Shown: positions 951 through 60,095, counted from the first letter of the stretch. The stretch: DNA of 64,000 nucleotides from Ruminococcus sp. (GCA_045587105.1 JAZNBR010000056.1:479-64478); one strand, 5' to 3'. Program-made: numbers and translations. Notes: generated by a model not told the origin, from the sequence alone.

Positions 951-1511
951 AATTCCGAATTGGCACCAGCGGTGCCCCCGATTCACGTTTCCGTGCGTAA
1001 ACGCACTCACTCTGTACGGCATGGTCAGTAAAAGCTCGCTCGCTTAGACTATTACCTCGGCAGTTAATTATAAATGCCAGCGGTGCCCCCGATTCACGTT
1101 TTCGTGCGTAAACGCACTCACTCTGTACGGAACGGCAGTCTGCTATCGCATACGGTAGAATTTTAATGCGGAATGCGGAATTCGGAATTCGGAATTCGGA
1201 ATTGTGGTGTCGGCATTCGCCGACGGATTGAAGAAATAATTCCGGCGGCAATGTGTAGGGTGCGATGCCTGCATCGCACCGTTGATATGCCGTTTGATTA
1301 ACGGGACGTCGTGGGTGCCGTCCCCTACATTATGATTCCGTAAGAGTTAAGCGAGCGAGCTTTTACTGACCATGCCGTACAGAGTAAGTGCGAAGCACGG
1401 AAACGTGTTTCGGGGGCACCGCTGGTGCCAATTCCGCATTCCGAATTATTTTAAATCTGTCCCGAAGGGACACCACAAGCTAAAGGCTAATAGCTAAAAG
1501 CTAAACAGCTA
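951..1511. repeat. Mosaic repeat cluster a
   Basis: Module order: L(+) 962-1063; L'(+) 1076-1164; CGGAATK heptamers 1165-1203; B(+) 1204-1233; GTAGGG-hairpin doublet 1254-1329; L(-) 1338-1429; heptamers 1430-1447; B(-) 1448-1477; GCTAANN heptamers 1478-1511. The same modules recur at 13 other sites in the window, in both orientations. Confidence 0.9.
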
Positions 1512-2342
1512 TTATTCGTAATTTTCTTTCAGGAATTTTATTTCCCTTGCGTAGCCGTCGATATCGTTGGGAGTTTCGAGGATAAAGGGCAGTCCTCTGA
1601 GTGCGGGATGATTAATCACCCTTATCAGTGCCTCAGCGCCGATGTGTCCCTCGCCGATTTTAGCGTGGCGGTCCTTGTGTGCGTCAAGCGGATTAAGGCT
1701 GTCGTTGAGATGTATCGCCTTAAGCCTGTCCAGACCGATAATGCGGTCGAACTGCTCCAGAACACCGTCAAGGTCGTTTACGATATCGTAGCCGCCGTCC
1801 CAGACGTGGCAGGTATCAAGGCAGACTCCGAGCTTTTCCTGAAGCTCCACACGGTCGATAATCTCTCTGATTTCCCCGAAATTACGTCCCATTTCGGAAC
1901 CCTTTCCAGCCATTGTCTCAAGAAGAACAAGCGTTGACTGCTCTTTTGTGAGAACGGTATTGAGCTGCTTAGCGATGAGAGCCGTACCGATTTCCGTACC
2001 CTGCTTAACATGGGAGCCGGGATGAAAATTGTAGTAATTTCCGGGAACATACTCCATCCGTGCGAGGTCGTCCGCCATTGCTTCTCTTGCGAAGCGGCGG
2101 ATATTCTCGTCTGCGGCACAGGCATTCATGGTGTAGGGAGCGTGAGCAACAAGCTTACCGAAGCTGTTTTCGGCGGCGAATTTCATGAAATCGGCGGCAT
2201 CCTGAGGATTGACCGGCTTTGCGGCACCGCCTCTGGGATTTCTTGTGAAGAATGCGAAGGTATTCGCTCCGATTTCAGCCGCCTGACGTCCCATAGCCAT
2301 AAAGCCGCCTGAGCTTGACAGATGACATCCGATATACAGCAT
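1512..2342 (-). CDS. nfo: Deoxyribonuclease IV (endonuclease IV)
   Basis: 276-aa [16 protein letters not shown]...; AP endonuclease family 2 signature motifs ([17 protein letters not shown]). Confidence 0.93.
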
Positions 2343-2486
2343 AAAATCATTCCTTTCAATTTAGTTTTACAATTGGTGAAGCAATAAAACAATACCGCAC
2401 AAGTTCTGTACGGTGAGGTTGATATAATATGTATGGGCGGCCTTTGCGGTCGAACGTTATATTTCATCCGATATTTTATGTTATCC

Positions 2487-2706
2487 GGACATTTATGCGG
2501 ACGACCAATGGTCGTCCCTACAAATTGTCACACGACATTTTTATCGTATGAATATAACGACGGGCGGACACATGGGTCCGCCCCCTACGAATTAATGTCA
2601 GCAGGTGTAATATTTTAATTTTATCCCGTCAGGGACACCATAGCTAAAGGCTAAAGGCTAACAGCTAATAGCTCATAAATAAAGGCTAAAGGCTTAATTC
2701 CGCATA
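2487..2706. repeat. Mosaic repeat cluster b
   Basis: Two GTAGGG-hairpins in minus orientation (2498-2522, 2561-2588), B(-) at about 2611-2641, and a GCTAANN heptamer array 2641-2695. Modules are shared with clusters a, e, f, h and n. Confidence 0.85.
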
Positions 2707-2742
2707 ACGTAAAATATACGATGAATACAATGGGCGGTTATA

Positions 2743-3213
2743 TTATTCGATAGTAACCTTCTTCATTATCTGCGGATTTACAGGCTTATCTCTGAAATCA
2801 GTTGCTGTTTCTGCGATTTCGTCAACAGCGTCCATGCCCTCGATAACCTTTCCGAAAGCTGCATACTGACCGTCAAGGTGCGGAGCGTCATCGTGCATGA
2901 TAAAGAACTGCGAGCCGGCAGAGTCAGGCATCATGGAGCGTGCCATTGAGAGTACACCTCTTGTGTGCTTGAGGTCGTTTTTTACGCCGTTTGATGAGAA
3001 TTCGCCCTTGATATTCCAGCCGGGACCGCCTGTGCCTGTACCGTTGGGACATCCGCCCTGAATCATGAAGCCGGGGATAACTCTGTGGAAGGTCAGACCG
3101 TCATAGAAGCCGCTTTTCACGAGCTTCTCGAAGTTTTCGCATGATATAGGAGCGATTTCGGGATAAAGCTCTATTTTGATTTTCTTTCCGTTTTCAAGTT
3201 CGATAATAACCAT
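2743..3213 (-). CDS. ppiB: Cyclophilin-type peptidyl-prolyl cis-trans isomerase
   Basis: ORF 2743..3357 trimmed to ATG 3213 (MVIIELENGK...) with GGAGG upstream. Motifs FHRVIPGFMIQGG and SMAR...GSQFFI are present. Confidence 0.9.
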   Translation of the reverse strand: MVIIELENGKKIKIELYPEIAPISCENFEKLVKSGFYDGLTFHRVIPGFMIQGGCPNGTGTGGPGWNIKGEFSSNGVKNDLKHTRGVLSMARSMMPDSAGSQFFIMHDDAPHLDGQYAAFGKVIEGMDAVDEIAETATDFRDKPVNPQIMKKVTIE

Positions 3214-3283
3214 TTTAAAATTCCTCCAAAAATTCAAGGTAATACCGTACAAAGCCGTAAGGCGGACTTTGTGCGGTGCTGTA

Positions 3284-3583
3284 TTAGTTTGCCGTTCTTT
3301 CCCAGAGTTCATCAAGCTTCGATTTTGAGCCTGTTTCTGTCGGCGGAGATGTTTCAAATATCTCCGGCTCAGGCGGAGCTGTTGTTTCCGGTGCGGCTGT
3401 CGGGATGTTCACTGGCGGAGTATAACCGTCCTTAGTGACTATCTCCGGAGAAATTACTATTGTCGGACGGACAACGTCGGGATTCTGCTTTTTCGCCTTT
3501 TCCGTACCGGTTTTTCCGATTATCGCAAGAAGTACTGCCGCCGCTACTGCTATTACCAGTCCGATAAGCTTTCCTCGTTCCAT
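3284..3583 (-). CDS. Small membrane-anchored Pro/Thr-rich hypothetical protein
   Basis: 99-aa ORF with a strong GGGAGGTG RBS, an N-terminal TM segment (LIGLVIAVAAAVLLAII) and a low-complexity tail. Confidence 0.6.
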   Translation of the reverse strand: MERGKLIGLVIAVAAAVLLAIIGKTGTEKAKKQNPDVVRPTIVISPEIVTKDGYTPPVNIPTAAPETTAPPEPEIFETSPPTETGSKSKLDELWERTAN

Positions 3584-3681
3584 AAGTCACCTCCCTTTTT
3601 CTGATATATACATTATACTCGTTTTTTCCGATAATGTCAAGGGCGGCAGCGTGACGGTATGTGTAAAATAAATATAGGCAA

Positions 3682-3757
3682 TGTAGGGTGCGATGCCCAC
3701 ATCGCACCGCAGACGAATCACATTCATAACGGGCGGATGTAGGCATCCGCCCCTACA
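3682..3757. repeat. Mosaic repeat cluster c: inverted doublet of GTAGGG-headed hairpins
   Basis: TGTAGGGTGCGATG-CCCA-CATCGCACC ... GGGCGGATG-TAGG-CATCCGCCCCTACA. Both hairpins are identical to those at 47713-47790. Confidence 0.9.
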
Positions 3758-5025: not shown

Positions 5026-6198
5026 ATGAAGGAAGTTGTACTTGCAAAATATGGAGAAATGGCTCTGAAAGGGCTTAATAAGCGTACCTTTGAGGATATG
5101 CTCACAAAAAATATCAGACGCAGACTCAGACCTCTCGGCAGCTTTACGCTGACAAGAGCACAGTCCACGCTGTACATCACTCCCGATGAGGAAAATACCG
5201 ATCTTTCGGAGGTTGTTGACGCTGTCGGAAGGATTTTCGGAATCGCCGCTTACTGCCGTGCCTGCGTGTGCGAGAAGGATTTTTCCGATATCGCAGAAAA
5301 GAGCGTGGAGTATCTTGAGGACATCCTCAGCACAGCAGGAACATTCAAGGTGAACGCAAAGAGAGCTGACAAGGCATTCCCCATGAAATCGCCTGAAATC
5401 TGCATGGAGCTTGGCGGAATTATCCTTGAAAAATTTCCGCATCTGACCGTTGACGTGAAGAATCCTGAGGTGACTGTTACGGTTGAAATCCGTGATACGA
5501 ACGCTTACGTCCACGGCGAGAATCTCAAGGGTGCAGGCGGACTTCCCGTTGGCAGCAGCGGAAAGGCAATGCTTCTTCTTTCCGGCGGAATTGACAGTCC
5601 TGTTGCCGGCTGGATGATGGCGAAAAGAGGCGTTCACATCGAGGCAATTCACTTTGTAAGTCCGCCGTATACATCCGACCGTGCAAGGCTCAAGGTTGAG
5701 ACTCTCTGCGAGAAAATGACTCCCTACTGCGGAGGAATTGCGTTCTACTGCGTACCGTTTACGGAGCTTCAGGAGGCTATCAGGGATAACTGTCCGGAGG
5801 AGTTCTTTACAATTATAATGAGACGTCTGATGATGGAAATTGCCCAGAGAATCGCTGCAAAGGACAACTGTCTGGCACTGATTACCGGCGAGAGCGTTGG
5901 TCAGGTTGCAAGTCAGACAATGGCGGCTATTGCCTGCACCGACGCTGTATGCAGAATTCCTGTATTCCGTCCGCTTGTGGGAATGGACAAGACGGAGATA
6001 ATTGAAATTTCCCGAAAAATAGACACATTCGAGACATCCGTCCTTCCATACGAGGATTGCTGTACGGTATTCACACCTAAGCATCCGAAGGTAAGACCTC
6101 AGCTTTCCGACGTCGAGAAGGCTCAGAACAGCTTTGATTTCGAGCCGCTTATCCGGAAGGCTGTCGAGGAAACGGAGCTTAAAACTTTTAATGCCTAA
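5026..6198 (+). CDS. thiI: tRNA 4-thiouridine synthase ThiI (short form, no rhodanese domain)
   Basis: 390 aa with a THUMP-type N-terminus and the PP-loop LLLSGGIDSPVA. Confidence 0.93.
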   Translation: MKEVVLAKYGEMALKGLNKRTFEDMLTKNIRRRLRPLGSFTLTRAQSTLYITPDEENTDLSEVVDAVGRIFGIAAYCRACVCEKDFSDIAEKSVEYLEDILSTAGTFKVNAKRADKAFPMKSPEICMELGGIILEKFPHLTVDVKNPEVTVTVEIRDTNAYVHGENLKGAGGLPVGSSGKAMLLLSGGIDSPVAGWMMAKRGVHIEAIHFVSPPYTSDRARLKVETLCEKMTPYCGGIAFYCVPFTELQEAIRDNCPEEFFTIIMRRLMMEIAQRIAAKDNCLALITGESVGQVASQTMAAIACTDAVCRIPVFRPLVGMDKTEIIEISRKIDTFETSVLPYEDCCTVFTPKHPKVRPQLSDVEKAQNSFDFEPLIRKAVEETELKTFNA

Positions 6199-6201
6199 AA
6201 A

Positions 6202-6251
6202 GCTCTTAGCTCTCAGCCGTTAGCCTTTAGGGTCGCACACATGGGTGCGAC
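6202..6251. repeat. Mosaic repeat cluster d: heptamer array plus TAGGG-hairpin
   Basis: GCTCTTA GCTCTCA GCCGTTA GCCTTTA, then GGTCGCAC-ACATGG-GTGCGAC, immediately after the thiI stop. Confidence 0.75.
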
Positions 6252-6299
6252 TATGCCAATATCATTGTTATATCACATAAAGAATAGAAGGTTTCAACA

Positions 6300-6827
6300 A
6301 TGGAAATTATGGAAAATAGTGGATGCACACCCGAAAATCTTGACAAAATGGTTACAGATGTTGTAGAATTATTATTACTGAGAGGCGTATCCATTTCCAC
6401 GGCGGAAAGCTGCACAGGCGGTCTTTTATCAGAGCTGATAACGGCTGTTTCCGGTGCGTCACAGATTTTCCAGCTCGGAATATGCACCTACTCGGAGCAG
6501 ATGAAAACGGAGTTCCTTGGTGTATCTCCCGATATTATGCGGAATTACGGCGTTGTCAGCCGTGAAACTGCTCTTGCCATGGCGGCAGGACTAAAGAAAA
6601 TTTCCGGAGCTGATATCTGTGTTTCTGTGACAGGAATTGCAGGTCCCGGCGGCGGAACTCCCGAAAAACCGGTGGGAACAGTCTTTACCGGCTTTGATAT
6701 CTTCGGCAGACTGACATCATCTCAGCTGCCATTCAGCACAATCACGGATTTCAGCCGTGCCGGCATACGCATGGCGGCGGCTTACCATATATTTGAAACG
6801 ATTAAAAATGCACTTATGGAGGTGTAA
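6300..6827 (+). CDS. pncC: CinA-family nicotinamide-nucleotide amidohydrolase domain protein (PncC-like)
   Basis: 175 aa with [10 protein letters not shown] and [12 protein letters not shown] motifs. Confidence 0.85.
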
Positions 6828-6834: not shown

Positions 6835-8541
6835 ATGAACGATTTACACGGCGGTTCTGAGGAACTCACCAGAGCTGAGAAAATTAAAAGAATAAAAAAA
6901 TCACTGCATCCGGAAGCACCTGCACCGAAGCCGGCAGTTCCCGAAGCTTTTGCACCGAAGCCGGCAGTTCCCGAAGCTCCTGCACCAGAGCCGGTCAGTG
7001 TATCTGCGGAATCCGACTGGGAACAGAAGCTTACACGCTTTCTGGAAGAAAAAAAACGTGCTCCCAGACCTTCCGGCGGAAGAACGGCGGAAAGTATTCT
7101 TGCTGAGCTTTTCGGCGAGGACTGCCTGACTTCCTCACCTGAGCCGAAAATCATCCCTGAACCAGTGCCGGAGCCGGAGGTAATTCCCGAACCAGTGCCG
7201 GAGCCGGAGGTAATCCCCGAACCAGTGCCGGAGCCGGAGATAATCCCCGAACCAGTGCCGGAGCTGGAGATAATCCCCGAACCAGTGCCGGAGCCGGAGG
7301 CAATTCCCGAACCAGTGCCGGAACAGGAAGTAATTCCCGAACCAGTGCCGGAACAGGAAGAATCCGGCAAAAAGAAAAAGGAAAAAAAGAAGAAGGAAAA
7401 GAGTTCCGGAGCAGTCACAAAGAAAAAGAAGAAAAGGACTTTCAAACAGCGATTCTTAGGGCTTTTTCCGCAGAAGGGCGACAAGGTTTCTGAAATTATC
7501 CGCAAGATTATCTTTCTGATTTCAATAATTGCAATCGTAGTCTGCGGATATCTCGTGGCTGACTACTACTTTGAACTCTGGCAGAGCAGGAAAATTACTG
7601 AGGAGGTCAGTAATCTCTACTGGACGTACGAAACAACAGAGCCGGCAACAGGCGAGGAGCATCCCGAAATCGAGCCGGACGGGGAGGGCAGGGAAAAGAA
7701 GGTCTACAAGCTTCTGCCCGGAGCAGAAAAGCTGCTCGACATCAACAAGGATGTTATCGGCTACATCAAGATAGACGGTACTCCAATTGACAACGTTGTA
7801 CTCAGGGGCGAGGACAACGTCGAATACCTTGACAAGAAGATAAGCGGCGAAAAGAACAGAACAGGAGAGCTTTTCCTTGACTGGCGCAATCACTTTGACG
7901 ACGTTGACGAGGAAGGTCATCTCAAGTACGGCAATTCGCACAATCTCATTATTCACGGTCATGCCATGAAGGATGAGTCGATGTTCGGCTCGCTTATAAA
8001 ATACCGCACAACGGACGGCTATTACAGCGAGCATCCGATAATTTACCTCAACTCGAATTACAGCCACTATACCTATAAGATTTTCTCTGTTTTCGTTGTT
8101 GACGCAGAGGATAAGACAGATACAAGGATGAACTGCTGGGATAAGCTCAATTTCACCAGCGAGGTGGATTTCTACGACTTCGTAAACGACGCAAAAAGGA
8201 GAAATATCCACACAAATGACGTGGATGTAAAGTACGGCGACCAGCTTCTTACGCTGTCAACCTGCGATACCTACCTCGGCGACAGGGGACGTCTTATTAT
8301 CATGGCACGCCGCGTCAGAGAGGGCGAGGATCCTCTTGAGGGAACTCAGAACAGCACCAGAAACCACAATATCAAGTGGCCTACGCTGTACTATAACTCG
8401 AATTCCGGCAAGTATGACCCCGATGATTTCGTTCCGTACAACGCACCGGCAGAGGAAAAAAAGCCTCAGTCCGGAGCTGAACAGCCAACATCCGCACAGA
8501 CGACATCCGCACAGACAACAACGGTATCCTCAGGAGTGTGA
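6835..8541 (+). CDS. srtB: Class B sortase with a ~245-aa low-complexity cytoplasmic N-terminal extension
   Basis: ORF 6757..8541 trimmed to ATG 6835. Contains [10 protein letters not shown] repeats, a Lys-rich block and a TM segment. The sortase B core is visible: [33 protein letters not shown]. Confidence 0.85.
6913..6995 (+). repeat. About 2.7 copies of a 30-bp in-frame tandem repeat ([10 protein letters not shown])
   Basis: GAAGCACCTGCACCGAAGCCGGCAGTTCCC repeated with a few substitutions. Confidence 0.85.
7153..7362 (+). repeat. Seven near-identical 30-bp in-frame tandem repeats ([10 protein letters not shown]) inside the first sortase gene
   Basis: ATYCCBGAACCAGTGCCGGARCNGGARRWA x7, read directly from the sequence. 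Confidence 0.95.
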
Positions 8542-9541: not shown

Positions 9542-11164
9542 ATGAAAAACAGACAATCTATGAAAAGTACTGCCGCTGTTCTGGCAGGACTTATCGCTCT
9601 GACGGGAACGGTCTCGCTTATCGGCTACGCAGCCGGTCAGGAGCCTTCCTCAACAACTGAAATCAGTACGGCTGAAACAAGTACGACTGAAATCAGCACG
9701 GCTGAAACCGGCACCTCCGCAAGCACAGCGGAATCTCAGGCAGGTACTGAGACTTCCACAGAAACAGCGGAAATTCCGGCGGAAGAAAGTACAGCGGAAA
9801 TCGACTGGACAAAGGCTGATATATCGGCTTATGACGAAAGTCTGTCGCTTGTGAGCTACGAGGAGACAACTCCCGAAATGCTTGAAACAGTCGGAGTGAA
9901 AACGGCTTCTGAGGACGGCGATGAACTCACTGAGGAGGAATTCGCGGCTATGACCGAAAGACGCCGGAAAATCAAGAAGCTCTCTCCGTCCCTGACAAGA
10001 AAGGGAAGCAACGCAGAGCCGACAACGGTCGAGCTTTATCTCTCAGGAAAGCCGGTTGGTGAGATTCCGCCCTCTCAGGGAGTTGATGCGGAAGGTCAGC
10101 CCGGAAGCTTCACCTTCGTTACATACGGCTGGGGACACGGAGTCGGTCTCAGCCAGAACGGTGCAAACTTCTATGCTTCGTACAGCGGCTGGACATATCA
10201 GGATATCCTGTTCCACTACTATCCCGGAACGTTTCTGATGAATACCGGTCTGACTGACTACGAGGAGCTTACTGTCCGTCACCAGCCCTACGGTGAGGAT
10301 ACCCTCGACCTTGTATCGCAGATTGTATACAACGAGGTCGGCGGCTCCATGGCTTACGAGGCAATAAAGGCTCAGGCAGTTGCTGTATATACATATATAA
10401 AGTATAACGGCGATGATTCCAACGACCTCCGCCCGAAGGCAGATCCGCCGCAGATTGTAATTGACGCGTGTGCTGAGGTACTCGGAGAGGCTCTTTTCTA
10501 TGACGGAGACTACGCTCTGACGATGTTCTATGCGTCAAGCGGAGGCTGTACAGCCAACTGCTACGAGATATTCTATCAGGATATTCCCTATCTGACGTGT
10601 GTTCCCAGCGATTACGACGGTGCCTATGATCCGCATTTCGGAACTGTTACATACATAAGCTCGGCGATGATGAGGTACAAGATTGAAACTGCGTACGGAA
10701 TCACGCTGTCGGACGATCCCTCGAACTGGATTGTACCGATATATTCCGAGGATACAGGCTATATAACGGATGTTCTTATAGACGGACAGATGTACGTCAA
10801 GGGCTATGCGTTCTCGCTTGCAATGGGACTTAAATCGTGCAAGTTTGATCTGTTCTATACCCCGACAGATGAGGAAGAGGCAGGCGGACTTCTTGGTGAA
10901 GCACCCATGCCTGATGTTCCCATGCCGGATGTGCCGGTGTCAGGAATTCTGCCGGATATACAGATACCTGCCGAGGAGCCTTCAGAGGAGTCAACAGAGG
11001 ACACTACTGAGGATCCCACAGGCGAGCCGACAGAAGCCCCCACGACTTCCGAAGATGTTACGGAGCCTTCAACAGAGGAGACAACAACCTCCGGAGATGT
11101 TACAGAGGAGCCTTCAGCTGAGGTGACAACAGGGGAGACAACGACTTCCGGTGATGATAATTAA
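9542..11164 (+). CDS. SpoIID/LytB-domain protein (peptidoglycan remodelling)
   Basis: ATG 9542 lies behind AGGTGA; the track start at 9533 is GTG. Signal/TM N-terminus, GWGHGVGLSQNGA motif, Thr/Glu-rich low-complexity ends. Confidence 0.8.
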   Translation: MKNRQSMKSTAAVLAGLIALTGTVSLIGYAAGQEPSSTTEISTAETSTTEISTAETGTSASTAESQAGTETSTETAEIPAEESTAEIDWTKADISAYDESLSLVSYEETTPEMLETVGVKTASEDGDELTEEEFAAMTERRRKIKKLSPSLTRKGSNAEPTTVELYLSGKPVGEIPPSQGVDAEGQPGSFTFVTYGWGHGVGLSQNGANFYASYSGWTYQDILFHYYPGTFLMNTGLTDYEELTVRHQPYGEDTLDLVSQIVYNEVGGSMAYEAIKAQAVAVYTYIKYNGDDSNDLRPKADPPQIVIDACAEVLGEALFYDGDYALTMFYASSGGCTANCYEIFYQDIPYLTCVPSDYDGAYDPHFGTVTYISSAMMRYKIETAYGITLSDDPSNWIVPIYSEDTGYITDVLIDGQMYVKGYAFSLAMGLKSCKFDLFYTPTDEEEAGGLLGEAPMPDVPMPDVPVSGILPDIQIPAEEPSEESTEDTTEDPTGEPTEAPTTSEDVTEPSTEETTTSGDVTEEPSAEVTTGETTTSGDDN

Positions 11165-11165
11165 T

Positions 11166-11407
11166 AATTCGGAATGCGGAATTCGGAATTAATTGTATCG
11201 GCTTCGCCGATGGATTGAAATTTAAATGGCAACTGTTTTTTACGGTTGCCATTTGTTATTTTTTGATATTTTACGTTGTGTGGACATTTATGCGGACGAC
11301 CAATGGTCGTCCCTACAATCGGATTCATATAATTTTCGGTATAATATTTTAAATCCGTCCCGAAGGGACACCACAGCTAAAAGCTAACGGCTAATAGCTA
11401 AAAGCTG
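11166..11407. repeat. Mosaic repeat cluster e
   Basis: CGGAATK heptamers, B(+) 11195-11222, terminator hairpin, GTAGGG-hairpin(-) 11292-11317, AT-rich linker, B(-) 11347-11375, GCTAANN array. About 170 bp is collinear with clusters f and h in opposite orientation. Confidence 0.9.
11226..11265 (+). terminator. Rho-independent terminator after the SpoIID-domain gene (part of cluster e)
   Basis: ATGGCAACTG-TTTTTTA-CGGTTGCCAT followed by TTGTTATTTTTT. Confidence 0.8.
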
Positions 11408-42071: not shown

Positions 42072-42085
42072 ATTGCAAACTCCTT

Positions 42086-45508: not shown

Positions 45509-45877
45509 GGCACCAGCGGTGCCCCCGATTCACGTTTCCGTGCTTCGCACTCACTCTGTACGGCATGGTCGGTAATAGCTCGCTCGCTTAGATTATTACC
45601 TCGGCAGTCAATTATAAATGCCAGCGGGCAGCGTGACGCTGCACCCGATTCACGTTCCCATGTGCTGACGCACATTCCTCTGTACGGAACGGCAGTCTGC
45701 TATCGCATACGGCAGAATTTTAATGCGGAATTGGCACCAGCGGTGCCCCCGAAACACGTTTCCGTGCTTCGCACTCACTCTGTACGGCATGGTCGGTAAT
45801 AGCTCGCTCGCTTAGACTATTGCCTCGGCAGTCAATTATAAATGCCAGTGGGCAGCGTGACGCTGCCCGCTGGTGCC
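45509..45877. repeat. Mosaic repeat cluster j: full long element 45509-45725, a second L copy 45737-45838, and a nested terminal hairpin
   Basis: About 95% identical to the copies at 962-1175 and 38449-38645. The last hairpin, GGCACCAGYG[GGCAGCGTGACGCTGCC]CGCTGGTGCC, ends directly at the GGDEF gene stop. Confidence 0.92.
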
Positions 45878-47671
45878 TTAGATGTAGGCGTTCTTTTTGA
45901 GCAGAGCAGTGACAGTCCGTCCGATAATAGAGAGATATCCGATATCCGAAACAGACCATTTCTTAAAACGGCTGATATAGCAGAAGGAAATCATTCCCTT
46001 GATAACATTGTTTTCCGTCATGAGATACTGTACAGCACCGCCGATTTTCTGTGCGGTCAGCTGGGCGAAGGCGTTGTCGTCACGGCCTTCAAGCTCGTTC
46101 ACGTTGTCAATAACAAAGATACCGTCGCCGGTAAAACGCTCTGTATAGGCATTTTCAAGGAGATATGCGGCATTCCTCGACTGTGCGTTTCCGCAGCTGA
46201 GAATCAGATTCATATCCTTTCCGGCAAAAACGCAGATATCGTCAATCCCGAACTGCGAGCGTATCTGCTCCAGAAGGACGGAAATATCGGGGATTCTTCC
46301 CAGCACGAGACTTTCCGCAAGCCGTCCCATAAAGCTGAGCGTTTCGGACGAGGAATTATTGTTGCTGAGATATACAATTTTGTTTTCGGCGTCCTTTTCA
46401 ACGGGACCATGCTTTTCGATATCGTAGATAACGTATCTGTTTTGACCCTTCTGCTGTGCTATATACAGGGCTTTGTCCGCCTGCATGAAAAGCTCGTCGT
46501 AGTCGGAGCTGTCCTTCGGATAAGAGGAAATTCCCATTGAGCAGGTCAGCCGGAAATTTTCTGACCGGTCAGCGAAGGCAAATTCCGTGTTCGTGCGGAT
46601 TGCCCTGAGAATACCACGGAGATCCTCCTCGTCCCTGATATCCTCCAGCACGATGAGGAAGCTGCTTCCGCTGATTCTTCCTGCAAGACCTCGTGAGCCT
46701 ATTTCGTTCTTTATGATATCAGCAACACGGTAGATTACCTCGTCCCCGAAAAGATGACCGTAGCTGCTGTTGATTCCGGTGAAGTTGTCGATATCAAGAA
46801 TCACAAGAGCAACGGTGCCGGAGGGCTTTTCCGCAAGAAGCTTTACTGCAAAGGAGGTCACGGAATTCTTGTTGAGAAGTCCGGATATGGAGTCCCTGTT
46901 TGATTCGATAGCGAGGTTGATATCCTTGCTTTTCTGACCGGAGCTTACAACGGAGATAATTCCGCTGACCTTTTTTAATTCGGGAGAATCGCATCGTGTA
47001 ATTCCACGGAAAAGGCAGAGTTCACGTTTTTCTCCGCCGGTCAGGACAGAGGTTTCAATTTCGTGGTCAAAGCGGTACACACCGTTTCTGATATCACGGC
47101 ACAGGCTGTTGAAGGCGTCGGTATAGCGTGACTGGATATATCCTGCGTTGATGGAATCCAGCCGCCATTTTTCGAGGTTTTCCCTTACAAGTACGATTTC
47201 ACGGCAGCAGTCGGACATATAGATTTTAAGCTCCTCGGTTTCAAAGCTGTATTCAAAGGCAAGATCGCTTACAAGGCTGAGGATGTAGCGGTATTCCGAG
47301 ATTTTCCGCTGTCGGAGGTACGCAAGCTGCTCCAGTGAAAAGACATCGCTGAAGGATATGCTGAAAAGCGGTTCATTGCCGGAGGATTGCGGAAGCTTTT
47401 TCACTGCGGCAAGGATATACCGTGTGATTCCGTTGATTCCGGTCATGCGGATTACCGTCCGACGGATTTCTCCCTCCGGAACCTCATTTATACATTCAAG
47501 GATTCTCGGAAAATCCTCGTCTTGTATGGTGCGGCGGATTGAGTAGATGACATCGTTGCCGAAATACCGGAAAAACACCTCGTCAGCACTCTGCGTGTGG
47601 AAGCTTTTATCCACGACAACACGTCCTATGCTGTACATTTCTCCGGTAAGAAATTCTCCTGAGTTTTCCAT
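45878..47671 (-). CDS. GGDEF-domain protein with a degenerate active site (SGSSF) flanked by uncharacterised N- and C-terminal domains
   Basis: 597 aa with GGAGG RBS. The GGDEF fold is evident (ILDIDNFTGINSSYGHLFGDEV...CSMGISSYP...ADKALYIAQQKG). The signature pentapeptide reads SGSSF (46658-46672). Confidence 0.85.
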   Translation of the reverse strand: MENSGEFLTGEMYSIGRVVVDKSFHTQSADEVFFRYFGNDVIYSIRRTIQDEDFPRILECINEVPEGEIRRTVIRMTGINGITRYILAAVKKLPQSSGNEPLFSISFSDVFSLEQLAYLRQRKISEYRYILSLVSDLAFEYSFETEELKIYMSDCCREIVLVRENLEKWRLDSINAGYIQSRYTDAFNSLCRDIRNGVYRFDHEIETSVLTGGEKRELCLFRGITRCDSPELKKVSGIISVVSSGQKSKDINLAIESNRDSISGLLNKNSVTSFAVKLLAEKPSGTVALVILDIDNFTGINSSYGHLFGDEVIYRVADIIKNEIGSRGLAGRISGSSFLIVLEDIRDEEDLRGILRAIRTNTEFAFADRSENFRLTCSMGISSYPKDSSDYDELFMQADKALYIAQQKGQNRYVIYDIEKHGPVEKDAENKIVYLSNNNSSSETLSFMGRLAESLVLGRIPDISVLLEQIRSQFGIDDICVFAGKDMNLILSCGNAQSRNAAYLLENAYTERFTGDGIFVIDNVNELEGRDDNAFAQLTAQKIGGAVQYLMTENNVIKGMISFCYISRFKKWSVSDIGYLSIIGRTVTALLKKNAYI

Positions 47672-47690
47672 GTTTACCTCCTTCTTAATT

Positions 47691-47803
47691 GAGCCGTTAG
47701 CCGTTAGCTATTAGTAGGGTGCGATGCCCACATCGCACCGCATAACATATCACAATTTTTGACGGGCGGATGTAGGCATCCGCCCCTACAAATGGCTAAA
47801 AGC
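47691..47803. repeat. Mosaic repeat cluster k
   Basis: CCGTTAG heptamers, GTAGGG-hairpin doublet 47713-47790 (hairpins identical to cluster c), and a GCTAA remnant. Confidence 0.9.
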
Positions 47804-49240
47804 TTATTTCCTAATTAAAAGAAAATAGTGCAGATTCTTGTCGTAATAAGGGAATTCCTCGTGTGCAATGCAGGTATAATGCTCAAAATCCGGATACTCG
47901 CCTGACGCACTTCTCGTCACGATGAAGTCGGGAATTCCGGCTTCTGCACACCTGCGCTGAGCCTCCCGCATAGCCGGATAGTCAAGGTTATTCCGGCAGA
48001 AATACTTCTGGTCTGGAATAATTCCGGCGGCAAGGTAGAAGCCTCCGTCAAGGAAGCCGTAGTTGAGCAGTGTGGGGGAATCGGTTTTGTTTATGATTTC
48101 AGCAAAACGATACTGCGGAAGCTCCTTTTTGCTGTACTTCATGAGATATGTGTTCGGGCTGAGGAGAAAGGCACCTGTCATGCAGAGTACAAGTGACGCC
48201 GGAGCTGCAAATCTTCCGGCTTTTCGCATGAGATTTTCGGCACAGGGAACTACTGCCGCCCCGAAAATCACGGCAAACGGTGCAAGGATAAGCGGATAAT
48301 AAAGATAGCTAAGATGTCCTGCGAAGGCTCCGAGAAAGGCTGTAATCAGGGATATTCCGCCATATTGCAGATATTTCTTTTTCCGGCGGACAATGGCAGA
48401 GATGATACCGGAGATGATAAGGAGAGTACCTATCGGCAGGAATTTTGCAGTAAAGACGGCTCCGTTTGCAAGATTGGTCAGCAGGGAAGTTCCCTCGCCG
48501 CCGTAGAGGAAGATATTGTTGTAGAAATATACCTCACAAAGGCTGAAAAGAGCGTCATTAGCGGCAAAGTATACTATCACCGGCAGAGAAACTGTCCCTA
48601 CACCGAGGACAATGTAACTGCACATCCGGACAAGGGATGAAATACCGCTTTTCAGGGATATCACGGCAAGTACAAGGAACATACCGATGAAGAATCCAAG
48701 CAGACTGAACTTTGTCCAGAAGATTATTCCGGCGATAATTCCCATAATAAAGGAGCTTTTTCCGGACAGCGGAGCTTCATTTTCTGCGGCTTCAAGTCCG
48801 GTGATAAAAGCACAGAGTATCAGCGGAAGGCAGAATTCCTCTGCACTGTCTCCATGACAGAATGTATACGAGCCATAGACAGTCATTGCGAGAAAGGGAA
48901 TCGCCCACAGAGAGGAATTCCCTGTAAACCGCCACAGAAGCCTGCCGGAAAGCGACAGGAACCATATACAGGCGGCAGCCTCAAAAAGGAAAACGCCGGC
49001 AAACGAGGAATCCGAGAGCATTGCGGCGGCGGCATGGAGCATATACAGCAGAGGTCCCTTGTGCTCAAAGAGGTCACGATAGGGGAGCATTCCCTCCGTC
49101 ATTGCACGTCCGACAGTCATGTAGCAGTTAGCGTCAACCCAGTCGTTAAGGGGATAAAGCGGCGAGGATTTCGAGCAGATGAGAATCGTCAGAAATCCTG
49201 TCAGAGCGATAAAAAGCGGGCAGCTGACCTTATTTTTCAT
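47804..49240 (-). CDS. Polytopic membrane glycosyltransferase, GT39/ArnT/PMT_2-like
   Basis: 478 aa, about 12 TM segments. The N-terminal loop (DANCYMTVGRAM...PYRDLFEHKGPL) is typical of the family. Confidence 0.65.
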   Translation of the reverse strand: MKNKVSCPLFIALTGFLTILICSKSSPLYPLNDWVDANCYMTVGRAMTEGMLPYRDLFEHKGPLLYMLHAAAAMLSDSSFAGVFLFEAAACIWFLSLSGRLLWRFTGNSSLWAIPFLAMTVYGSYTFCHGDSAEEFCLPLILCAFITGLEAAENEAPLSGKSSFIMGIIAGIIFWTKFSLLGFFIGMFLVLAVISLKSGISSLVRMCSYIVLGVGTVSLPVIVYFAANDALFSLCEVYFYNNIFLYGGEGTSLLTNLANGAVFTAKFLPIGTLLIISGIISAIVRRKKKYLQYGGISLITAFLGAFAGHLSYLYYPLILAPFAVIFGAAVVPCAENLMRKAGRFAAPASLVLCMTGAFLLSPNTYLMKYSKKELPQYRFAEIINKTDSPTLLNYGFLDGGFYLAAGIIPDQKYFCRNNLDYPAMREAQRRCAEAGIPDFIVTRSASGEYPDFEHYTCIAHEEFPYYDKNLHYFLLIRK

Positions 49241-52120: not shown

Positions 52121-52261
52121 CGTAGGGGACGGTACTCACGACGTCCCGTTAATTAAACGACATATCATCGGGGCGTCGAAGGCGCCGCCCCCTACACAAT
52201 TATATTTTTCATAAAGTTTTAGTTGTTACAAGGTAGTAGGGGCAACCCATGTGTTCGCCCG
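52121..52261. repeat. Mosaic repeat cluster l
   Basis: GTAGGG-hairpin doublet 52122-52196 plus a third, imperfect hairpin at 52234-52261. Confidence 0.85.
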
Positions 52262-55245: not shown

Positions 55246-55440
55246 AATGCGTAATTGTGGTGTCGGCATTCGCCGACGGATTGAAATCATCTGTTGCCAC
55301 AATCGGATATTTCACGTTTTGCGGACACGTCACGCTGCTGCCGAGGTAATAGTTTAAGCGAGCGAGCTTTTACTGACCATGCCGGACATAGGAATGTGCG
55401 TCAGCACATGGGAACGTGTTTCGGGGGCACCGCTGGTGCC
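55246..55440. repeat. Mosaic repeat cluster m
   Basis: Heptamer remnant, B(+) 55257-55287, and an inverted L copy from about 55311 to 55440 whose terminal GGCACCGCTGGTGCC hairpin overlaps the degV stop codon by 1 nt. Confidence 0.88.
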
Positions 55441-56312
55441 TATTTATTTTTTCTGCGTACAAGAACGGCAACGACATCGGGACCGATATTTGAAGCAACA
55501 GCTGCTCCGACAGCGGCGAGCATTTCAGCCTTTCTGCCGGTACGCTTGACAAGCTCCTTTTCGATTTCCTTTGCAAGAGTGTTATCACGTCCGTGTATGA
55601 GAAGATACGGACTCTGTGGAGTCATATTTCTTTCAACGCAGTCAACGAGCTTCGGAACGATATTCTTTTCGCCCCTGATTTTCTCAACTACCTCTGTTTC
55701 GCCGTCAGCAAAGAGGATTATCGGCTTGAGTCCGAGAAGCTCTCCTGCAAAAGCGGCAGCAGCGGAAACTCTTCCGGATTTTTTTGCGTATTTAAGATTG
55801 TAAGGCACAACGTAAACGCCGCATACATTGAACCAGTCCTCAAGATATGCGATAATTTCCTTAGCGTCTGCACCCTTGCGGATTTTCTTTACAGCCTCCA
55901 TGATCGGGTAGCCGTAGAATACTGTATAGCATCCGGAGTCAAGGTTGTAGATGTTGATTTTTCCCTTTGCTTCGGGATTGTTCTCGAAGAAATCCTTTTT
56001 TGCGGTGAGGGAGTTGTTGAATGTACCTGAACCCTTTGAATTCAGTGAAACGCTGATAATATCGGTGTATCCCTGATCGTAGATTTCCTTGTAGGCTTCT
56101 TCGAATTCATAGGGATTGACCATAGCGTGCTTGGGGATTTCGTTTGACTGAGCCATCAAATCGTAGACCTCCTGAGTGCTCTTGTCGAAGATTTCACGGA
56201 AGGTCTCGCCGTTTATGGTAACCTTAAGGGGAAGCACCTTGATTCCGAGCTCCTGAATAGTTTCAAGAGGAAGATCGCAGCAGCTGTCTGTAAGAATCAT
56301 AATTTTTGACAT
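55440..56312 (-). CDS. DegV-family fatty-acid-binding protein
   Basis: The track ORF starts at GTG 56321; ATG 56312 is preferred (MSKIMILTDSCCDLP...). Typical DegV length and N-terminus. Confidence 0.85.
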   Translation of the reverse strand: MSKIMILTDSCCDLPLETIQELGIKVLPLKVTINGETFREIFDKSTQEVYDLMAQSNEIPKHAMVNPYEFEEAYKEIYDQGYTDIISVSLNSKGSGTFNNSLTAKKDFFENNPEAKGKINIYNLDSGCYTVFYGYPIMEAVKKIRKGADAKEIIAYLEDWFNVCGVYVVPYNLKYAKKSGRVSAAAAFAGELLGLKPIILFADGETEVVEKIRGEKNIVPKLVDCVERNMTPQSPYLLIHGRDNTLAKEIEKELVKRTGRKAEMLAAVGAAVASNIGPDVVAVLVRRKNK

Positions 56313-56355
56313 AATAATCACTTTCTTTCTTTAAGATGATATGGTTTCCGCCGGC

Positions 56356-58027: not shown

Positions 58028-58932
58028 GGCTGAACAGTTCCGATGATATCCCTGACGGATGCGATATTCTTTCTGTCAAGGAAATTGTTCATTTCGTCAA
58101 CGATTTTTACAGGAGCAAAGGGATCAGTGAAAATAGCAGCTCCTACCTGAACAGCGGAAGCTCCTGCCATCATGAGTTCAATGGCATCAGCACCGGAGGA
58201 AACTCCGCCCATGCCGATAACAGGGATTTTCACAGCGTTTGCCACCTGCCATACCATGCGGACAGCAATCGGGAAAACAGCGGGACCACTCATTCCGCCG
58301 ACATTGTTGCGGAGGATAGGTCTGCCGGTATTGATGTCGATTCTCATGCCGAGGAGAGTGTTTATCAGCGAAACAGCGTCGGCTCCTGCGTCCTCGACAG
58401 CCTTTGCGATATCGGTAATGCTTGTGACATTGGGGGAGAGCTTCACGATAAGCGGCTTTGAAGTAGCCTTTCTCACCTGACGTGTAACCTCAGCTGCCAT
58501 ATCGCAGCTTGTTCCGAAAGCCGCACCGCCCTGTTTTACGTTGGGACAGGAGATATTCAGCTCGATCATGTGAACGTCTGTATTTTCAAGCTTTTCAGCG
58601 ACCTGAATACATTCTTCAACGGTAGAACCGGCGATATTTGCAAGAATTGTAACATCCTTTGTGAGCAGATAGGGGAGTTCCTTTTCGATGAAGTAGTCGA
58701 TTCCGGGATTCTGGAGTCCGACGGAATTAAGCATTCCTGAGGGAGTTTCAGCTATTCTCGGAGCAAGATTTCCGGTGCGTCTGTTAAGAGTAGTTCCCTT
58801 TGTGGCGATTCCGCCGAGTTTGCTGAGAGGATAAAGCTCCTCGTACTCATGACCGTATCCGAAAACGCCGGAAGCCGGAATTATCGGGTTTTTGAAGTCA
58901 ACACCGCAGATTTTTACAGAAAGATCAGCCAT
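58021..58932 (-). CDS. pyrD: Dihydroorotate dehydrogenase B, catalytic subunit
   Basis: 303 aa: NPIIPASGVFGYG...NISCPNVK...GMGGV. Confidence 0.93.
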   Translation of the reverse strand: MADLSVKICGVDFKNPIIPASGVFGYGHEYEELYPLSKLGGIATKGTTLNRRTGNLAPRIAETPSGMLNSVGLQNPGIDYFIEKELPYLLTKDVTILANIAGSTVEECIQVAEKLENTDVHMIELNISCPNVKQGGAAFGTSCDMAAEVTRQVRKATSKPLIVKLSPNVTSITDIAKAVEDAGADAVSLINTLLGMRIDINTGRPILRNNVGGMSGPAVFPIAVRMVWQVANAVKIPVIGMGGVSSGADAIELMMAGASAVQVGAAIFTDPFAPVKIVDEMNNFLDRKNIASVRDIIGTVQPW

Positions 58933-59702
58933 TACCAGAGCACCTCCTCAGCCTTGAACACAGGACCGTCCTTGCAGACGTGTGCGAAATATTCTTCGTC
59001 GTTTCTTTTGGTTTTGCAGGCACAGCCGAGACACGCTCCGATACCGCAAGCCATGCGTTCTTCGAGGGAAATTTCGCAGTAAACGGAATTTTCCCTGCAG
59101 ATTTCAGTAATTCTTTTCAGCATGGGAGTAGGTCCGCAGGCGAATACTGCGTCAACTCCGCCGTTTCTGACAAGTTCCTCAAGGGGCTGAGTTACAAAGC
59201 CGTGAATTCCGGCAGAACCGTCGTCGGTGCAGAGGATTGTTTCTGCTCCGGCAGCGGCGAAATCCTCCTGAAGGATAACGGCAGAAGCGTTTCTGAAGCC
59301 GGAAATTACAACTGCCTTTTCGCCGTATGCCATGGCAAGGGGAAGCATGGGCGGAGTTCCTATGCCGCCGCCGATGAGGATAACCTTTTTGAAATCCGGA
59401 TTCACGGTAAATCCGTGACCGAGAGGAGCGAGCATATCAATTACATCGCCCTTGTTGAGATTGGCAATCGCTGATGTGCCCTCGCCTCTGATTTCGAAAA
59501 CGATGCGGAGAGTTCCCATGTCGGGATTAATTCCGCAGATGGAGATAGGACGGCGGAGCGTGAAGCTGCCTGTTCTGATGTGAACGAACTGTCCCGGTAC
59601 AGCGACCTGTGCTATTTCCGGACAGCTTATTGTAAAGCTGTATATATTTCGTGCGATAGCTGATTTCTCAGTTATGAGATATTTTCCCTGTGTGTATTTC
59701 AT
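58932..59702 (-). CDS. pyrK: Dihydroorotate dehydrogenase B, electron-transfer (FAD/2Fe-2S) subunit
   Basis: 256 aa: RRPISI, GGGIGTPPM, C-terminal CGIGACLGCAC. Confidence 0.9.
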   Translation of the reverse strand: MKYTQGKYLITEKSAIARNIYSFTISCPEIAQVAVPGQFVHIRTGSFTLRRPISICGINPDMGTLRIVFEIRGEGTSAIANLNKGDVIDMLAPLGHGFTVNPDFKKVILIGGGIGTPPMLPLAMAYGEKAVVISGFRNASAVILQEDFAAAGAETILCTDDGSAGIHGFVTQPLEELVRNGGVDAVFACGPTPMLKRITEICRENSVYCEISLEERMACGIGACLGCACKTKRNDEEYFAHVCKDGPVFKAEEVLW

Positions 59703-59734
59703 ACAGACCTCCTGTTCAGATTTTATACAGAAAT

Positions 59735-59763
59735 ATTATACCATATTATTTTGGATTTGACAA
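59735..59763 (-). promoter_or_regulatory. Sigma-A promoter of pyrK-pyrD-GNAT-ruvX
   Basis: Minus strand: TTGTCA (59758-63), 17-nt spacer, TGgTATAAT (-10 at 59735-40). Confidence 0.6.
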
Positions 59764-59770
59764 GCATTTT

Positions 59771-60095
59771 GGGACGGATTGAAAAATTTATAACTGCCGG
59801 AAAAAATAACCGATTGTAGAGGGCGGCGTCCACGACGTCTGTGTTTTTTAATGTGTAATGCGTAATTCGTAATTATGGTGTCCCTGACGGGACGGATTGA
59901 AAATATATGTAACAGCAATATGTAGGGTGCGATGCCCACATCGCACCGTTGATATGCCGCTTAATTAACGGGACGTCGTGGGCACCGTCCCCTACAATCG
60001 GCTACATATGAATTTATGGTATTATAATTTAAATCGTCCCGTCATGCACACCACAAGCTAAAGGCTGACGGCTAAAAGCTGATAGCTGACAAGCC
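59771..60095. repeat. Mosaic repeat cluster n
   Basis: Partial B; degenerate GTAGAGGG hairpin 59815-59843; CGTAATK heptamers 59850-59874; B(+) 59875-59906; GTAGGG-hairpin doublet 59921-59996 (about 92% identical to 1254-1329); B(-) 60024-60054; GCTRANN array 60055-60095. Confidence 0.9.

Follow-up and report, generated by a model that had tools for sequence, protein, structure and literature searches.

Modular intergenic repeats are known in Bacillota from the BOX elements of Streptococcus pneumoniae, whose box subunits vary in number and combination and which have no transposase of their own. REP sequences are defined as extragenic, GC-rich imperfect palindromes of 20-40 nt, present in many copies, which keep their pairing as copies diverge and whose stem-loop stands on a 5' GT[AG]G tetranucleotide (PMC6006769, PMC2817692). 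RAYT subclass 2.4 (Quentin et al. 2018), equivalent to Group 4 of Bertels et al. (2017), has both canonical and "double-foot" REPs; it occurs in abundance among Cyanobacteria and Bacteroidetes, with a scattered presence elsewhere (PMC6006769).

We studied a 64,000-nt stretch of Ruminococcus sp. DNA (GCA_045587105.1 JAZNBR010000056.1:479-64478), called the window below. Oscillospiraceae is the family that contains Ruminococcus. The original prediction described a mosaic of short repeat modules filling at least 14 intergenic gaps, about 3.3 kb or 5% of the window. Sequence print-out, repeat finding and TRF recovered all 14 sites, totalling 3304 nt (5.2%). Clusters a to g lie at 951-1511, 2487-2706, 3682-3757, 6202-6251, 11166-11407, 34223-34392 and 35821-36098, and clusters h to n at 38449-38801, 39337-39547, 45509-45877, 47691-47803, 52121-52261, 55246-55440 and 59771-60095. 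They are built from the hairpins R and B, the longer unit L and arrays of 7-bp units, as follows (strand in brackets).

962-1063 (+): L unit, hairpin A of GGCACC type, 3' domain i, cluster a (nhmmer, alignment)
1077-1182 (+): L unit, 3' domain ii, cluster a (nhmmer, alignment)
1165-1203 (+): 7-bp array AATTCGG x5.6 (TRF)
1206-1233 (+): B module, GTGGTGT-hairpin-GGATTGAA (nhmmer)
1255-1328 (unstranded): two R with outward feet, (+) at 1255-1280 and (-) at 1303-1328, a REPIN-like doublet (repeat finding)
1342-1440 (-): L unit, domain i, cluster a (repeat finding, nhmmer)
1447-1478 (-): B module (nhmmer)
1477-1511 (-): 7-bp array GCTAANN x4.9, ending at the stop codon of gene 1512-2342(-) (TRF)
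2499-2521 (-): R, GTAGGGACGACC-ATT-GGTCGTCC
2562-2588 (-): R
2611-2642 (-): B module (nhmmer)
2643-2694 (-): 7-bp array GCTAAAG x7.4 (TRF)
3683-3756 (unstranded): R doublet, R1 + R2, z = -5.7 (folding)
6201-6228 (+): 7-bp array AGCNNTT x4, 3 nt past the thiI stop (sequence print-out)
6228-6251 (+): R-like hairpin with degenerate foot TAGGG (repeat finding)
11166-11190 (+): 7-bp array AATTCGG x3.6, 1 nt past a stop codon (TRF)
11194-11221 (+): B module, ATCGGC-TTC-GCCGAT allele (nhmmer)
11294-11316 (-): R
11345-11375 (-): B module (nhmmer)
11375-11406 (-): 7-bp array AGCTAAA x4.6 (TRF)
34223-34246 (+): 7-bp array TTAGCNN x3.4, overlapping the nth stop codon (TRF)
34248-34276 (+): B module (nhmmer)
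34307-34333 (+): R
35822-35911 (+): L unit, beginning right after the stop codon of gene 34436-35821 (nhmmer)
35925-35954 (unstranded): double-foot R, a GTAGGGG...CCCCTAC palindrome
35982-36009 (-): B module (nhmmer)
36013-36044 (-): 7-bp array AATTCCG x4.6 (TRF)
36027-36098 (-): partial L unit, adjoining the stop codon of gene 36099-37271(-) (repeat finding, nhmmer)
38449-38547 (+): L unit, beginning right after the DAPDH stop codon (nhmmer, alignment)
38546-38655 (+): L unit, domain ii, with heptamer tail (nhmmer, alignment)
38653-38685 (+): B module (nhmmer)
38715-38737 (+): R
39339-39364 (+): R
39367-39420 (-): L head fragment and GCAGCG hairpin (nhmmer)
39438-39547 (-): L unit, 1 nt from the stop of gene 39549-42173(-), where strain RGIG6295 differs (nhmmer)
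45509-45607 (+): L unit (nhmmer)
45628-45734 (+): L unit (nhmmer)
45733-45877 (+): L unit and terminal hairpins, adjoining the stop of gene 45878-47671(-) (nhmmer)
47692-47708 (+): 7-bp array AGCCGTT x2.4 (TRF)
47714-47789 (unstranded): R doublet, R1 + R2, z = -5.8 (folding)
52122-52195 (unstranded): R doublet (repeat finding)
52236-52260 (+): R
55246-55288 (+): short heptamer AATGCGTAATT and B module, right behind a terminator-like hairpin (nhmmer)
55338-55440 (-): L unit, in contact with the degV stop codon, gene 55440-56321(-) (nhmmer)
59771-59841 (+): 3' half of B, linker and R-like hairpin with GTAGAG foot (sequence print-out)
59849-59905 (+): 7-bp array TAATKCG x3.6 and B module (TRF, nhmmer)
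59922-59995 (unstranded): R doublet (repeat finding)
60025-60094 (-): B module and GCTRANN array (nhmmer)

Overall, R is present about 20 times in the window, B 11 times with a further half copy, L as 13 units or fragments, and the heptamer arrays number about 14. There are 28 occurrences of GTAGGG, whereas shuffles give 13.6 ± 4.0 and none of 100 reaches 28; 19 of the 28 fall within the 14 clusters. The L core CACGTTTCCGTGC (up to two mismatches) was found 11 times against 1.3 expected, and the B pattern five times against 0.5. The gene calls leave 8606 nt, of which 3415 have two or more further matching copies within the window or related loci, about 250 nt of this being orthology and not repeat; hairpin modules make up about 40% of the non-coding DNA. 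The window is part of the housekeeping chromosome of a ruminant-gut Ruminococcus, the 40 proteins annotated with Pfam being housekeeping genes only. As had been proposed, every genuine module copy is intergenic. Apparent R matches inside genes proved to be chance GTAGAG hairpins, or spurious ORFs of about 100 aa crossing repeats. The modules were also considered as intrinsic terminators and rejected: 22 terminator-like sites were counted against 19.1 expected, most modules have no T-tract, and genuine terminators adjoin them.

R is a canonical GTAG-footed REP in the published sense. The GTAGGG foot is invariant in 27 distinct R sequences of 23-28 nt, T precedes GTAG in 88% of copies, and a 9-bp stem begins within or beside the foot. 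Five of the nine stem pairs are altered on both sides between copies. The covariation score is 0.455 against 0.178 in shuffles (0.455 was reached in none of 500), although the R sequences counted were picked for pairing ability, which makes the percentage paired circular. Under a stricter definition, 65 copies were found in the window and 28 related loci, all of them intergenic. The commonest stems recur 9-10 times and many copies are identical across loci. Five inverted doublets of 74-76 nt with outward feet, the REPIN arrangement, occur in the window. Two of the five (clusters c and k) were folded, with the z values listed above, and the minimum free energy structure of 47714-47790 is one long hairpin.

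B is a second footed hairpin, its GTGG foot standing one base off the stem and its loop frequently being UUCG. It is always preceded by a 7-bp array and usually followed by R. Clusters a, b, e, f, g, h and n show the proposed order of array, B, AT-rich linker and R, and so do most B copies of three other genomes; repeat finding and comparison of B-R order both agree with modules lying in either orientation and in a partly fixed order. L is indeed a unit of about 100 nt, standing either alone or in a tandem series of differing variants instead of being usually duplicated. It has three hairpin slots and no GTAG foot, and single units fold weakly (z = -0.8 to -2.7). The slot alleles reassort, 12 of 18 combinations being seen among 46 copies, and three different R stems share one and the same 31-nt linker, in keeping with the combinatorial character first noticed. 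Both predicted heptamers, CGGAATK and GCTAANN, are present; the unit types number three and not two, namely CGGAATK, CGTAATK and TTAGCNN/GCTAANN.

The modules are not confined to the window or to one prophage or island, and recur on numerous contigs from three related MAG species. Four Ruminococcus genomes at greater distance lack them or have just two R copies, and none were found in the phage or plasmid collections searched. By sequence matches, L, B and the arrays are confined to a narrow Ruminococcus clade and the R family reaches far wider. Comparison of orthologous gaps, which the original prediction had suggested, showed that module content differs between close strains. Clusters d, h, i and j are unlike those of strain RGIG6295, with flanks 95-96% identical, and one related locus (L016) carries different cargo from two others (L021/L036) within identical boundaries. 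No clean filled-versus-empty site with R boundaries was seen among these comparisons, the differences being replacements.

The window had been said to lack a transposase, and Pfam annotation and six-frame searches for Y1 transposases were likewise negative. The window and 28 related Ruminococcus loci together make about 285 kb, a sample in which a single-copy gene is easily missed, and yielded neither RayT nor another Y1 gene. R is a member of a very large family of hairpins that occurs in gut genomes of Oscillospiraceae type and is physically linked to RayT genes. At least 303 R hairpins were found in about 0.8 Mb of matched loci among the metagenome matches listed. In Oscillospiraceae and human-gut contigs, near-identical hairpins flank RayT genes and lie in frame within them. 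The RayT gene at 5935-6456 of locus L157 has three R copies upstream, two downstream and another three within it. Among these, GTAGGGGCGGATGCCCACATCCGCCC is window R2 except for a single loop base. The closest named relative of the AcsB of this locus comes from an Oscillospiraceae MAG. The RayT proteins of L039 and L157-L159 carry HuH (NHVHMIL) and Y (RSYYDH) motifs. In-frame R copies, of which L039 has two, occupy two fixed positions, before HuH and between HuH and Y. Against NCBIfam NF047646 REP_Tyr_transpos these proteins score 59.7-66.4 bits (E ~1e-16 to 1e-18; curated cut-off 80), and their sole PDB match is 4ER8, TnpA-REP. Homologues number more than 5000, and JGI names some of them RayT. 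Given the physical linkage of the R family to RayT genes, we can name the likely mobilising activity, which is of a known kind.

Our preferred and probable explanation is a BIME-like system specific to this lineage, which a RayT with its gene elsewhere would have spread and recombination would have reshuffled. A single-copy HUH-Y1 enzyme would recognise R hairpins in single-stranded DNA, cut and rejoin them, and in this way place new copies in dispensable DNA as far as the stop codons. L, with its three hairpins, travels with B and R. Its mobilisation by RayT is conjecture; for B and L we infer either the same chemistry as for R or independent non-autonomous elements, and for the arrays either hairpin-adjacent microsatellites or possibly preferred entry sites. 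Since in all copies conserved single-stranded linkers separate variable hairpins, recombination or template switching could swap hairpin cassettes, giving rise to the combinatorial mosaic and to its rapid change from strain to strain.

The modules might instead act mainly as RNA, as 3'-UTR hairpins that stabilise or terminate transcripts or as small RNAs, kept by selection and spreading only secondarily. Modules lie 0-3 nt from stop codons at about 11 gene ends, L is sense-oriented at five of six L-bearing gene ends, and some modules sit between a stop codon and the real terminator and would thus be transcribed. The compensatory changes that keep stems, and the UUCG loop of B, also fit an RNA role. 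However, the modules lie in both orientations and in divergent, promoter-side gaps too, terminator-like and promoter-like matches are at chance level with most hairpins lacking a T-tract, and single L units fold weakly. Rfam 15 searched with the entire window gave no match at the gathering score and sub-threshold noise at relaxed E-values. Strains differ in their module content at orthologous sites, and this speaks against a site-specific function. We consider this reading unlikely; effects on mRNA 3' ends are likely by-products and not the cause of the pattern.

The extensive reassortment, the replacements inside fixed boundaries and the heptamer copy number at orthologous sites (4.5 versus 3 units) would also suit an origin with no dedicated enzyme, in which old relic repeats undergo gene conversion, replication slippage and template switching induced by hairpins. 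Such passive processes do not account for modules being spread over many unlinked intergenic sites and in either orientation, for the frequent identity of R copies across loci, for the absence of the whole system from sister species or for the tight linkage of the R family to RayT genes elsewhere, and we regard them as an improbable sole origin. It is very doubtful that L, perhaps with B-linker-R, represents classical MITEs, deletion derivatives of a DDE-type IS with terminal inverted repeats, target-site duplications and a transposase elsewhere: L copies are numerous, about 100 nt long and in both orientations, and clusters a and j start with GGCACCAGCGG and finish with CCGCTGGTGCC, but what looks like a "terminal repeat" is either the hairpin of L or a copy of L in inverted orientation, L or B-R borders lack a consistent target-site duplication (L left flanks are AATT, TAA or TTT), no longer parent element or transposase gene was seen in about 285 kb of the clade, and a three-slot structure with reassorting alleles is unlike a MITE.

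The window modules resemble BOX as intergenic repeats of Bacillota in variable combination. BOX is not known to be related to them in sequence or to have GTAG-footed hairpins or heptamer arrays. Miniature elements of IS200/IS605 type (PATE) have subterminal hairpins at either end on one strand and insert 3' of a fixed short sequence, producing no duplication. In the window, B and R are co-oriented hairpins and module left flanks commonly read ...ATT; no clean insertion event was recovered. By its features, the RayT-linked family resembles RAYT subclass 2.4: the gut RayT genes hold in-frame REPs, double-foot GTAG...CTAC hairpins occur in the window (35925-35954) and form most metagenome copies, and RayT in L157-L159 keeps a conserved chromosomal position. 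Unlike in that subclass, the in-frame REPs stand at two fixed positions. The doublets recall the REPINs of Pseudomonas (Bertels & Rainey 2011) as inverted REP pairs of about 75 nt overall that can fold as one hairpin, in populations of near-identical copies. Their arms are usually of different R classes (e.g. R1 + R2), so that the long hairpin is imperfect, unlike in Pseudomonas, and they form part of larger composites that include B, L and arrays. Compared with enterobacterial REP/BIME, the host is a member of Bacillota, no sequence homology to the E. coli PU/REP was seen, and B, the three-slot L and the 7-bp tandem arrays are additional modules, the arrays having no counterpart in described REP systems. 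E. coli BIMEs have REPs that alternate regularly in orientation, spaced by a limited repertoire of defined linker motifs. In the window the doublets alternate in orientation, but B and R are in direct orientation, and neither L nor the arrays correspond to any part of a BIME. The resemblance to BIME/REP proposed at the outset is upheld and refined: R is a GC-rich, imperfect palindrome footed by GTAG and lies outside genes in many copies, REPs are joined with linker motifs into mosaics, and in related genomes a single-copy HUH-Y1 enzyme is flanked by its own REPs.

The modules described in the original prediction were borne out at all 14 sites (clusters a to n, in positional order) when the sequence was inspected site by site. 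The sites total 3304 nt, in line with the claimed 3.3 kb, or about 5% of the window. A repeat search of the window linked the sites through multi-copy direct and inverted families, with a 93-nt inverted pair at 1348-1440 and 45722-45814 (97% complementary) and an 82-nt family at positions 1248, 3676, 52115 and 59915. Overall, 3415 of the 8606 non-coding nucleotides have matches in two or more other copies; orthologous loci, not repeats, account for about 250 nt of this. GTAGGG occurs 28 times in the window against 13.6 expected, and 19 of these occurrences fall inside the clusters, which make up about 5% of it. The core of the L unit is found 11 times (1.3 expected) and the B pattern five times (0.5 expected).

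All true copies are intergenic, as had been claimed. Hits that seem genic are either chance GTAGAG hairpins or lie in spurious ORFs of about 100 aa reading through repeats. The surrounding genes are those of an ordinary chromosome, including mraZ, cell-wall and division genes, thiI, a diaminopimelate dehydrogenase gene, a GH5 cellulase gene, a dockerin-bearing esterase gene, pyrD, and znuA (zinc uptake) with its ABC partners. Homologues of the diaminopimelate dehydrogenase carry the label Ruminococcus sp., and no clean switch of GC skew was seen along the window. Pfam searches on 40 ORFs returned housekeeping genes only, in agreement with the reported absence of a transposase from the window. 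ARAGORN found no tRNA or tmRNA from which the modules could derive, and cluster h (38449-38801) had no blastn match in phage or plasmid collections, nor did viral contigs contain an exact pattern of L, B or R.

Some coding regions also carry repeats. A sortase-domain gene contains, within 6909-7400, 6.7 in-frame copies of a 30-nt tandem repeat (92% matches), and a SpoIID-like gene contains 12/45-nt repeats near its 3′ end (10968-11142). These coding repeats are proline/glutamate-rich, of linker type, and have no relation to the intergenic modules. An alanine/glutamine-rich protein without a clear Pfam family (25295-26887), probably a coiled coil, carries a 120-nt coding tandem duplication (25634-25849, 90% matches). 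A 99-aa ORF (3284-3583) with a membrane-anchor-like N-terminus overlaps, in another frame, the cyclophilin gene (2743-3357, TTG start); the overlap may reflect a frameshift or a mis-called start. On an unrelated metagenome contig, a 498-aa diaminopimelate dehydrogenase homologue (L001, 2472-3968) matches the window gene twice in succession and looks like an internal partial duplication.

In R, (T)GTAGGG precedes a hairpin with an 8-10-bp stem and a 3-6-nt loop, and at least eight stem classes occur in the window. Five pairs of R with feet outward, 74-76 nt overall, are present there. Two such doublets were folded, giving z values of -5.7 and -5.8, and the minimum-energy fold of one is a single long hairpin. 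In 27 distinct R sequences, chosen for their pairing ability, both partners vary in five of the nine stem pairs (covariation score 0.455 as compared to 0.178 in shuffles). B is made of (A/G)TGGTGT, a hairpin and GGATTGAAA. The hairpin has three alleles (GTCGGC-ATTC-GCCGAC, GTCCC-TGAC/TTCG-GGGAC and ATCGGC-TTC-GCCGAT). The GTGG foot of B stands one base off its stem, a geometry described for some REP classes (PMC6006769). The recurring order of array, B, AT-rich stretch and R holds also beyond the window: in the window and related loci, the array precedes B in 37 of 37 copies, and in most of them R follows after an AT-rich linker of 20-45 nt. TRF placed the 7-bp arrays where predicted, but with three unit types (CGGAATK, CGTAATK and TTAGCNN) instead of two. 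They often begin directly behind a T-tract, and their copy number can vary between orthologous sites, for example 4.5 as compared to 3 units. The L unit has five parts.

Parts of the L unit, from the L alignment
Part 1: hairpin A, either GGCACC-AGC-GGTGCC or GCAGCG-TGA-CGCTGC
Part 2: conserved linker, CCCGAWWCACGTTYCC
Part 3: middle hairpin, in three compensated versions
Part 4: second linker, TCMCTCTGTACRR
Part 5: 3′ domain, one of three alternatives

The 46 full-length copies show 12 of the 18 slot combinations that are possible. Similarly, three different R stems are joined to one identical 31-nt linker, and a common downstream spacer stands behind different R stems. The general design is one of constant single-stranded linkers and exchangeable hairpins. 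At a higher order, a composite about 140 nt long, made of an R doublet, the conserved AT-rich spacer ACAATTATATTTTTCATAAAGTTTTAGTTG... and another R, also recurs as a unit, once in cluster l (52122-52260) and twice in the counterpart of cluster h in the related metagenome-assembled genome (MAG) RGIG6295 (contig L010, 6890-7321).

The original prediction likened the modules to the BIME/REP organisation, and R is indeed a REP. It fits the canonical REP as defined in the literature, a stem-loop with a 5′ GT[AG]G foot that is present in many extragenic copies, often as inverted pairs (PMC6006769, PMC3733652). A metagenome collection was scanned with a degenerate pattern for the R1 and R2 classes of the window, and the matches listed included 120 loci. 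These are mostly human-gut contigs with a GC content of 0.5-0.6, and most of them show the double-foot form GTAGGGGCCGATGCCCACATCGGCCCCTAC. R is the sole module that they have in common with the window, L, B and arrays being missing. RayT (REP-associated tyrosine transposase) genes lie at the hairpin in at least two loci, 2 of the 120 among the matches listed. The first, in L039 (327-851, minus strand), encodes about 160 aa with the HuH motif NHVHMIL and the Y motif RSYYDH, and carries two in-frame R insertions translated as VGADAHIGP and GPMWASAP. The second, in L060, is a remnant cut off at the same place. The L039 protein matches the NCBIfam model 'REP-associated tyrosine transposase' with E = 3e-16 and 59.7 bits, under the 80-bit cut-off; its relatives reach 61-66 bits against the same cut-off, and their sole PDB match is E. 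coli TnpA-REP (4ER8). There are more than 5000 homologues, some of them named RayT by JGI. These gut-metagenome RayT proteins of about 160 aa (among them P0121-P0240) form a very large family and contain one to three in-frame copies of their own REP hairpin at two fixed positions, translated as VGADAHIGP ahead of HuH and as GPMWASAPT in the stretch from HuH to Y.

The RayT gene of locus L157 (5935-6456) shows a REPtron arrangement: three R copies lie upstream of it, three within it and two downstream. But for a single loop base, one of these hairpins is identical to window R2. In L157-L159, the RayT gene lies between acsB and a corrinoid activase gene, and this conserved position fits vertical inheritance. 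The nearest named AcsB relative, at 90% identity, belongs to a MAG of the Oscillospiraceae, the family of Ruminococcus. Within this bacterial family, the R hairpin family and RayT genes are in physical linkage. A phmmer search of all six-frame ORFs, with an IS608 TnpA sequence and the L039 RayT as queries, found no RayT/Y1 gene in the window and 28 related Ruminococcus loci (about 285 kb).

The repeats are not confined to the window or to a single island. A 20-nt L-head pattern matched 28 stretches, spread over many contigs that belong to three Ruminococcus MAG species of the ruminant gut, so the system is genome-wide; the same search gave four chance matches in unrelated high-GC genomes. More distant Ruminococcus genomes are mostly without it.

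Modules in more distant Ruminococcus loci, with DNA identity to the window
L002-L004: 72-81% identity, 11 kb scanned, syntenic, no modules
L160/L161: about 72-79% identity, 21 kb scanned, no modules
L164 (R. flavefaciens MAG): about 71-83% identity, 21 kb scanned, no modules
L162/L163: about 79% identity, 16-20 kb scanned, two R, no B or L

In L002-L004, the diaminopimelate dehydrogenase and beta-propeller genes are 44 nt apart, as compared to 1.1 kb in the window, where the gap holds two clusters and a small Ig-like gene. This Big_14 gene (38809-39297), between clusters h and i, is present in RGIG6295 and absent from L002.

Orthologous gaps were compared with those of RGIG6295, a sheep-rectum MAG with contigs 95-96% identical in DNA to the window. 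All four comparable clusters differ, with flanks 95-96% identical. In place of cluster i (39337-39547, about 210 nt), RGIG6295 has a 31-nt heptamer-type stretch. Cluster d (6202-6251) consists of an array and R in the window, and of a different array and an L head in RGIG6295. Clusters h and j (45509-45877) diverge, turning into rows of R doublets, and a breakpoint lies within an L core. In other species, L016 and L021/L036 differ in cargo and have identical boundaries. Every informative orthologous pair in these comparisons is a replacement; no simple filled-versus-empty site was found. The modules are dispersed, intergenic, reassorted and quickly replaced. A rearrangement was also seen in the related MAG RGIG4258 (L019), where a GGDEF gene adjoins an inverted znuA/ABC block; in the window the two (45877-47672 and 60625-64000) are 13 kb apart. 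Its ends lie at repeat clusters j/k (k, 47691-47803) and n (59771-60095).

Slippage and conversion as purely passive sources of the mosaic can explain neither its dispersal nor its absence from sister species. An origin from classical MITEs, as a second alternative, is opposed by the lack of consistent target duplications and of a parent element in the roughly 285 kb sampled. A primary role as RNA-level elements is weakened by placement in both orientations, also in divergent gaps, by orthologous sites without conservation, by terminator and promoter consensus matches at chance level, and by Rfam, which gave nothing credible at gathering threshold in the whole window or at relaxed E-values in two cluster regions.

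We favor the reading that a RayT encoded elsewhere in the genome would recognise the footed hairpins on single-stranded DNA and spread them. B, with its GTGG foot, may be a second RayT substrate, and L may be carried along or be an element of its own. Conserved linkers would permit recombination or template switching, swapping the hairpins, and the arrays could be either entry sites or microsatellites next to the hairpins. A single RayT-type HUH enzyme that cuts and rejoins the feet of R, B and L hairpins, with cassettes swapped between conserved linkers and arrays as entry sites, seems to us improbable; if true, enzyme-driven shuffling would make gene ends and intergenic regions hypervariable between strains.

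Modules lie within 0-3 nt of, or overlap, about 11 stop codons (35821/35822, 36098/36099, 38448/38449, 39547/39549, 45877/45878, 55440, 1511/1512, 11164/11166, 34223, 47804-47806 and 6198/6201). At the orthologous gene ends L006 (about 6870) and L029 (about 6670), the stop codon is TAA in one and TGA in the other, and the adjoining L hairpin allele differs too. This reach fits insertion limited by selection on coding sequence alone. In E. coli, REPs near stop codons are reported to reduce protein output; hairpins 0-3 nt past stop codons may likewise affect gene expression. The strong strain-level variation that the repeats create beside housekeeping genes could provide typing markers. The 7321-nt contig L010 of RGIG6295 has repeat clusters at both of its ends (1-146 and 6890-7321), and therefore the repeats appear to break MAG contigs. 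This suggests that short-read assemblies break up at the repeats and that MAGs under-represent them.

To our knowledge, REP/RayT systems have been studied almost entirely in Proteobacteria. A 2013 survey of GTAG-REPs covered Proteobacteria, Cyanobacteria, Chloroflexi and the PVC group, with no Firmicutes (PMC3733652), and in Bertels et al. Clostridia appear solely under a different RayT group (PMC5581495). The mosaic had not been recognised as a described element family of Clostridia, and we found no paper on such a system in Ruminococcus or other gut Clostridia. The window holds a dense multi-module REP system in a fibre-degrading gut genus, and suggests that gut Oscillospiraceae-type genomes contain a very large RayT/REP family. 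By features alone, the gut proteins resemble RAYT subclass 2.4 / Group 4, sharing with it the in-frame REP insertions and double-foot REPs that are its hallmarks (PMC6006769). R is thus a new member of an already known REP type; the mosaic as a whole, which includes the heptamer arrays, B and the three-slot L, is a previously undescribed variant.
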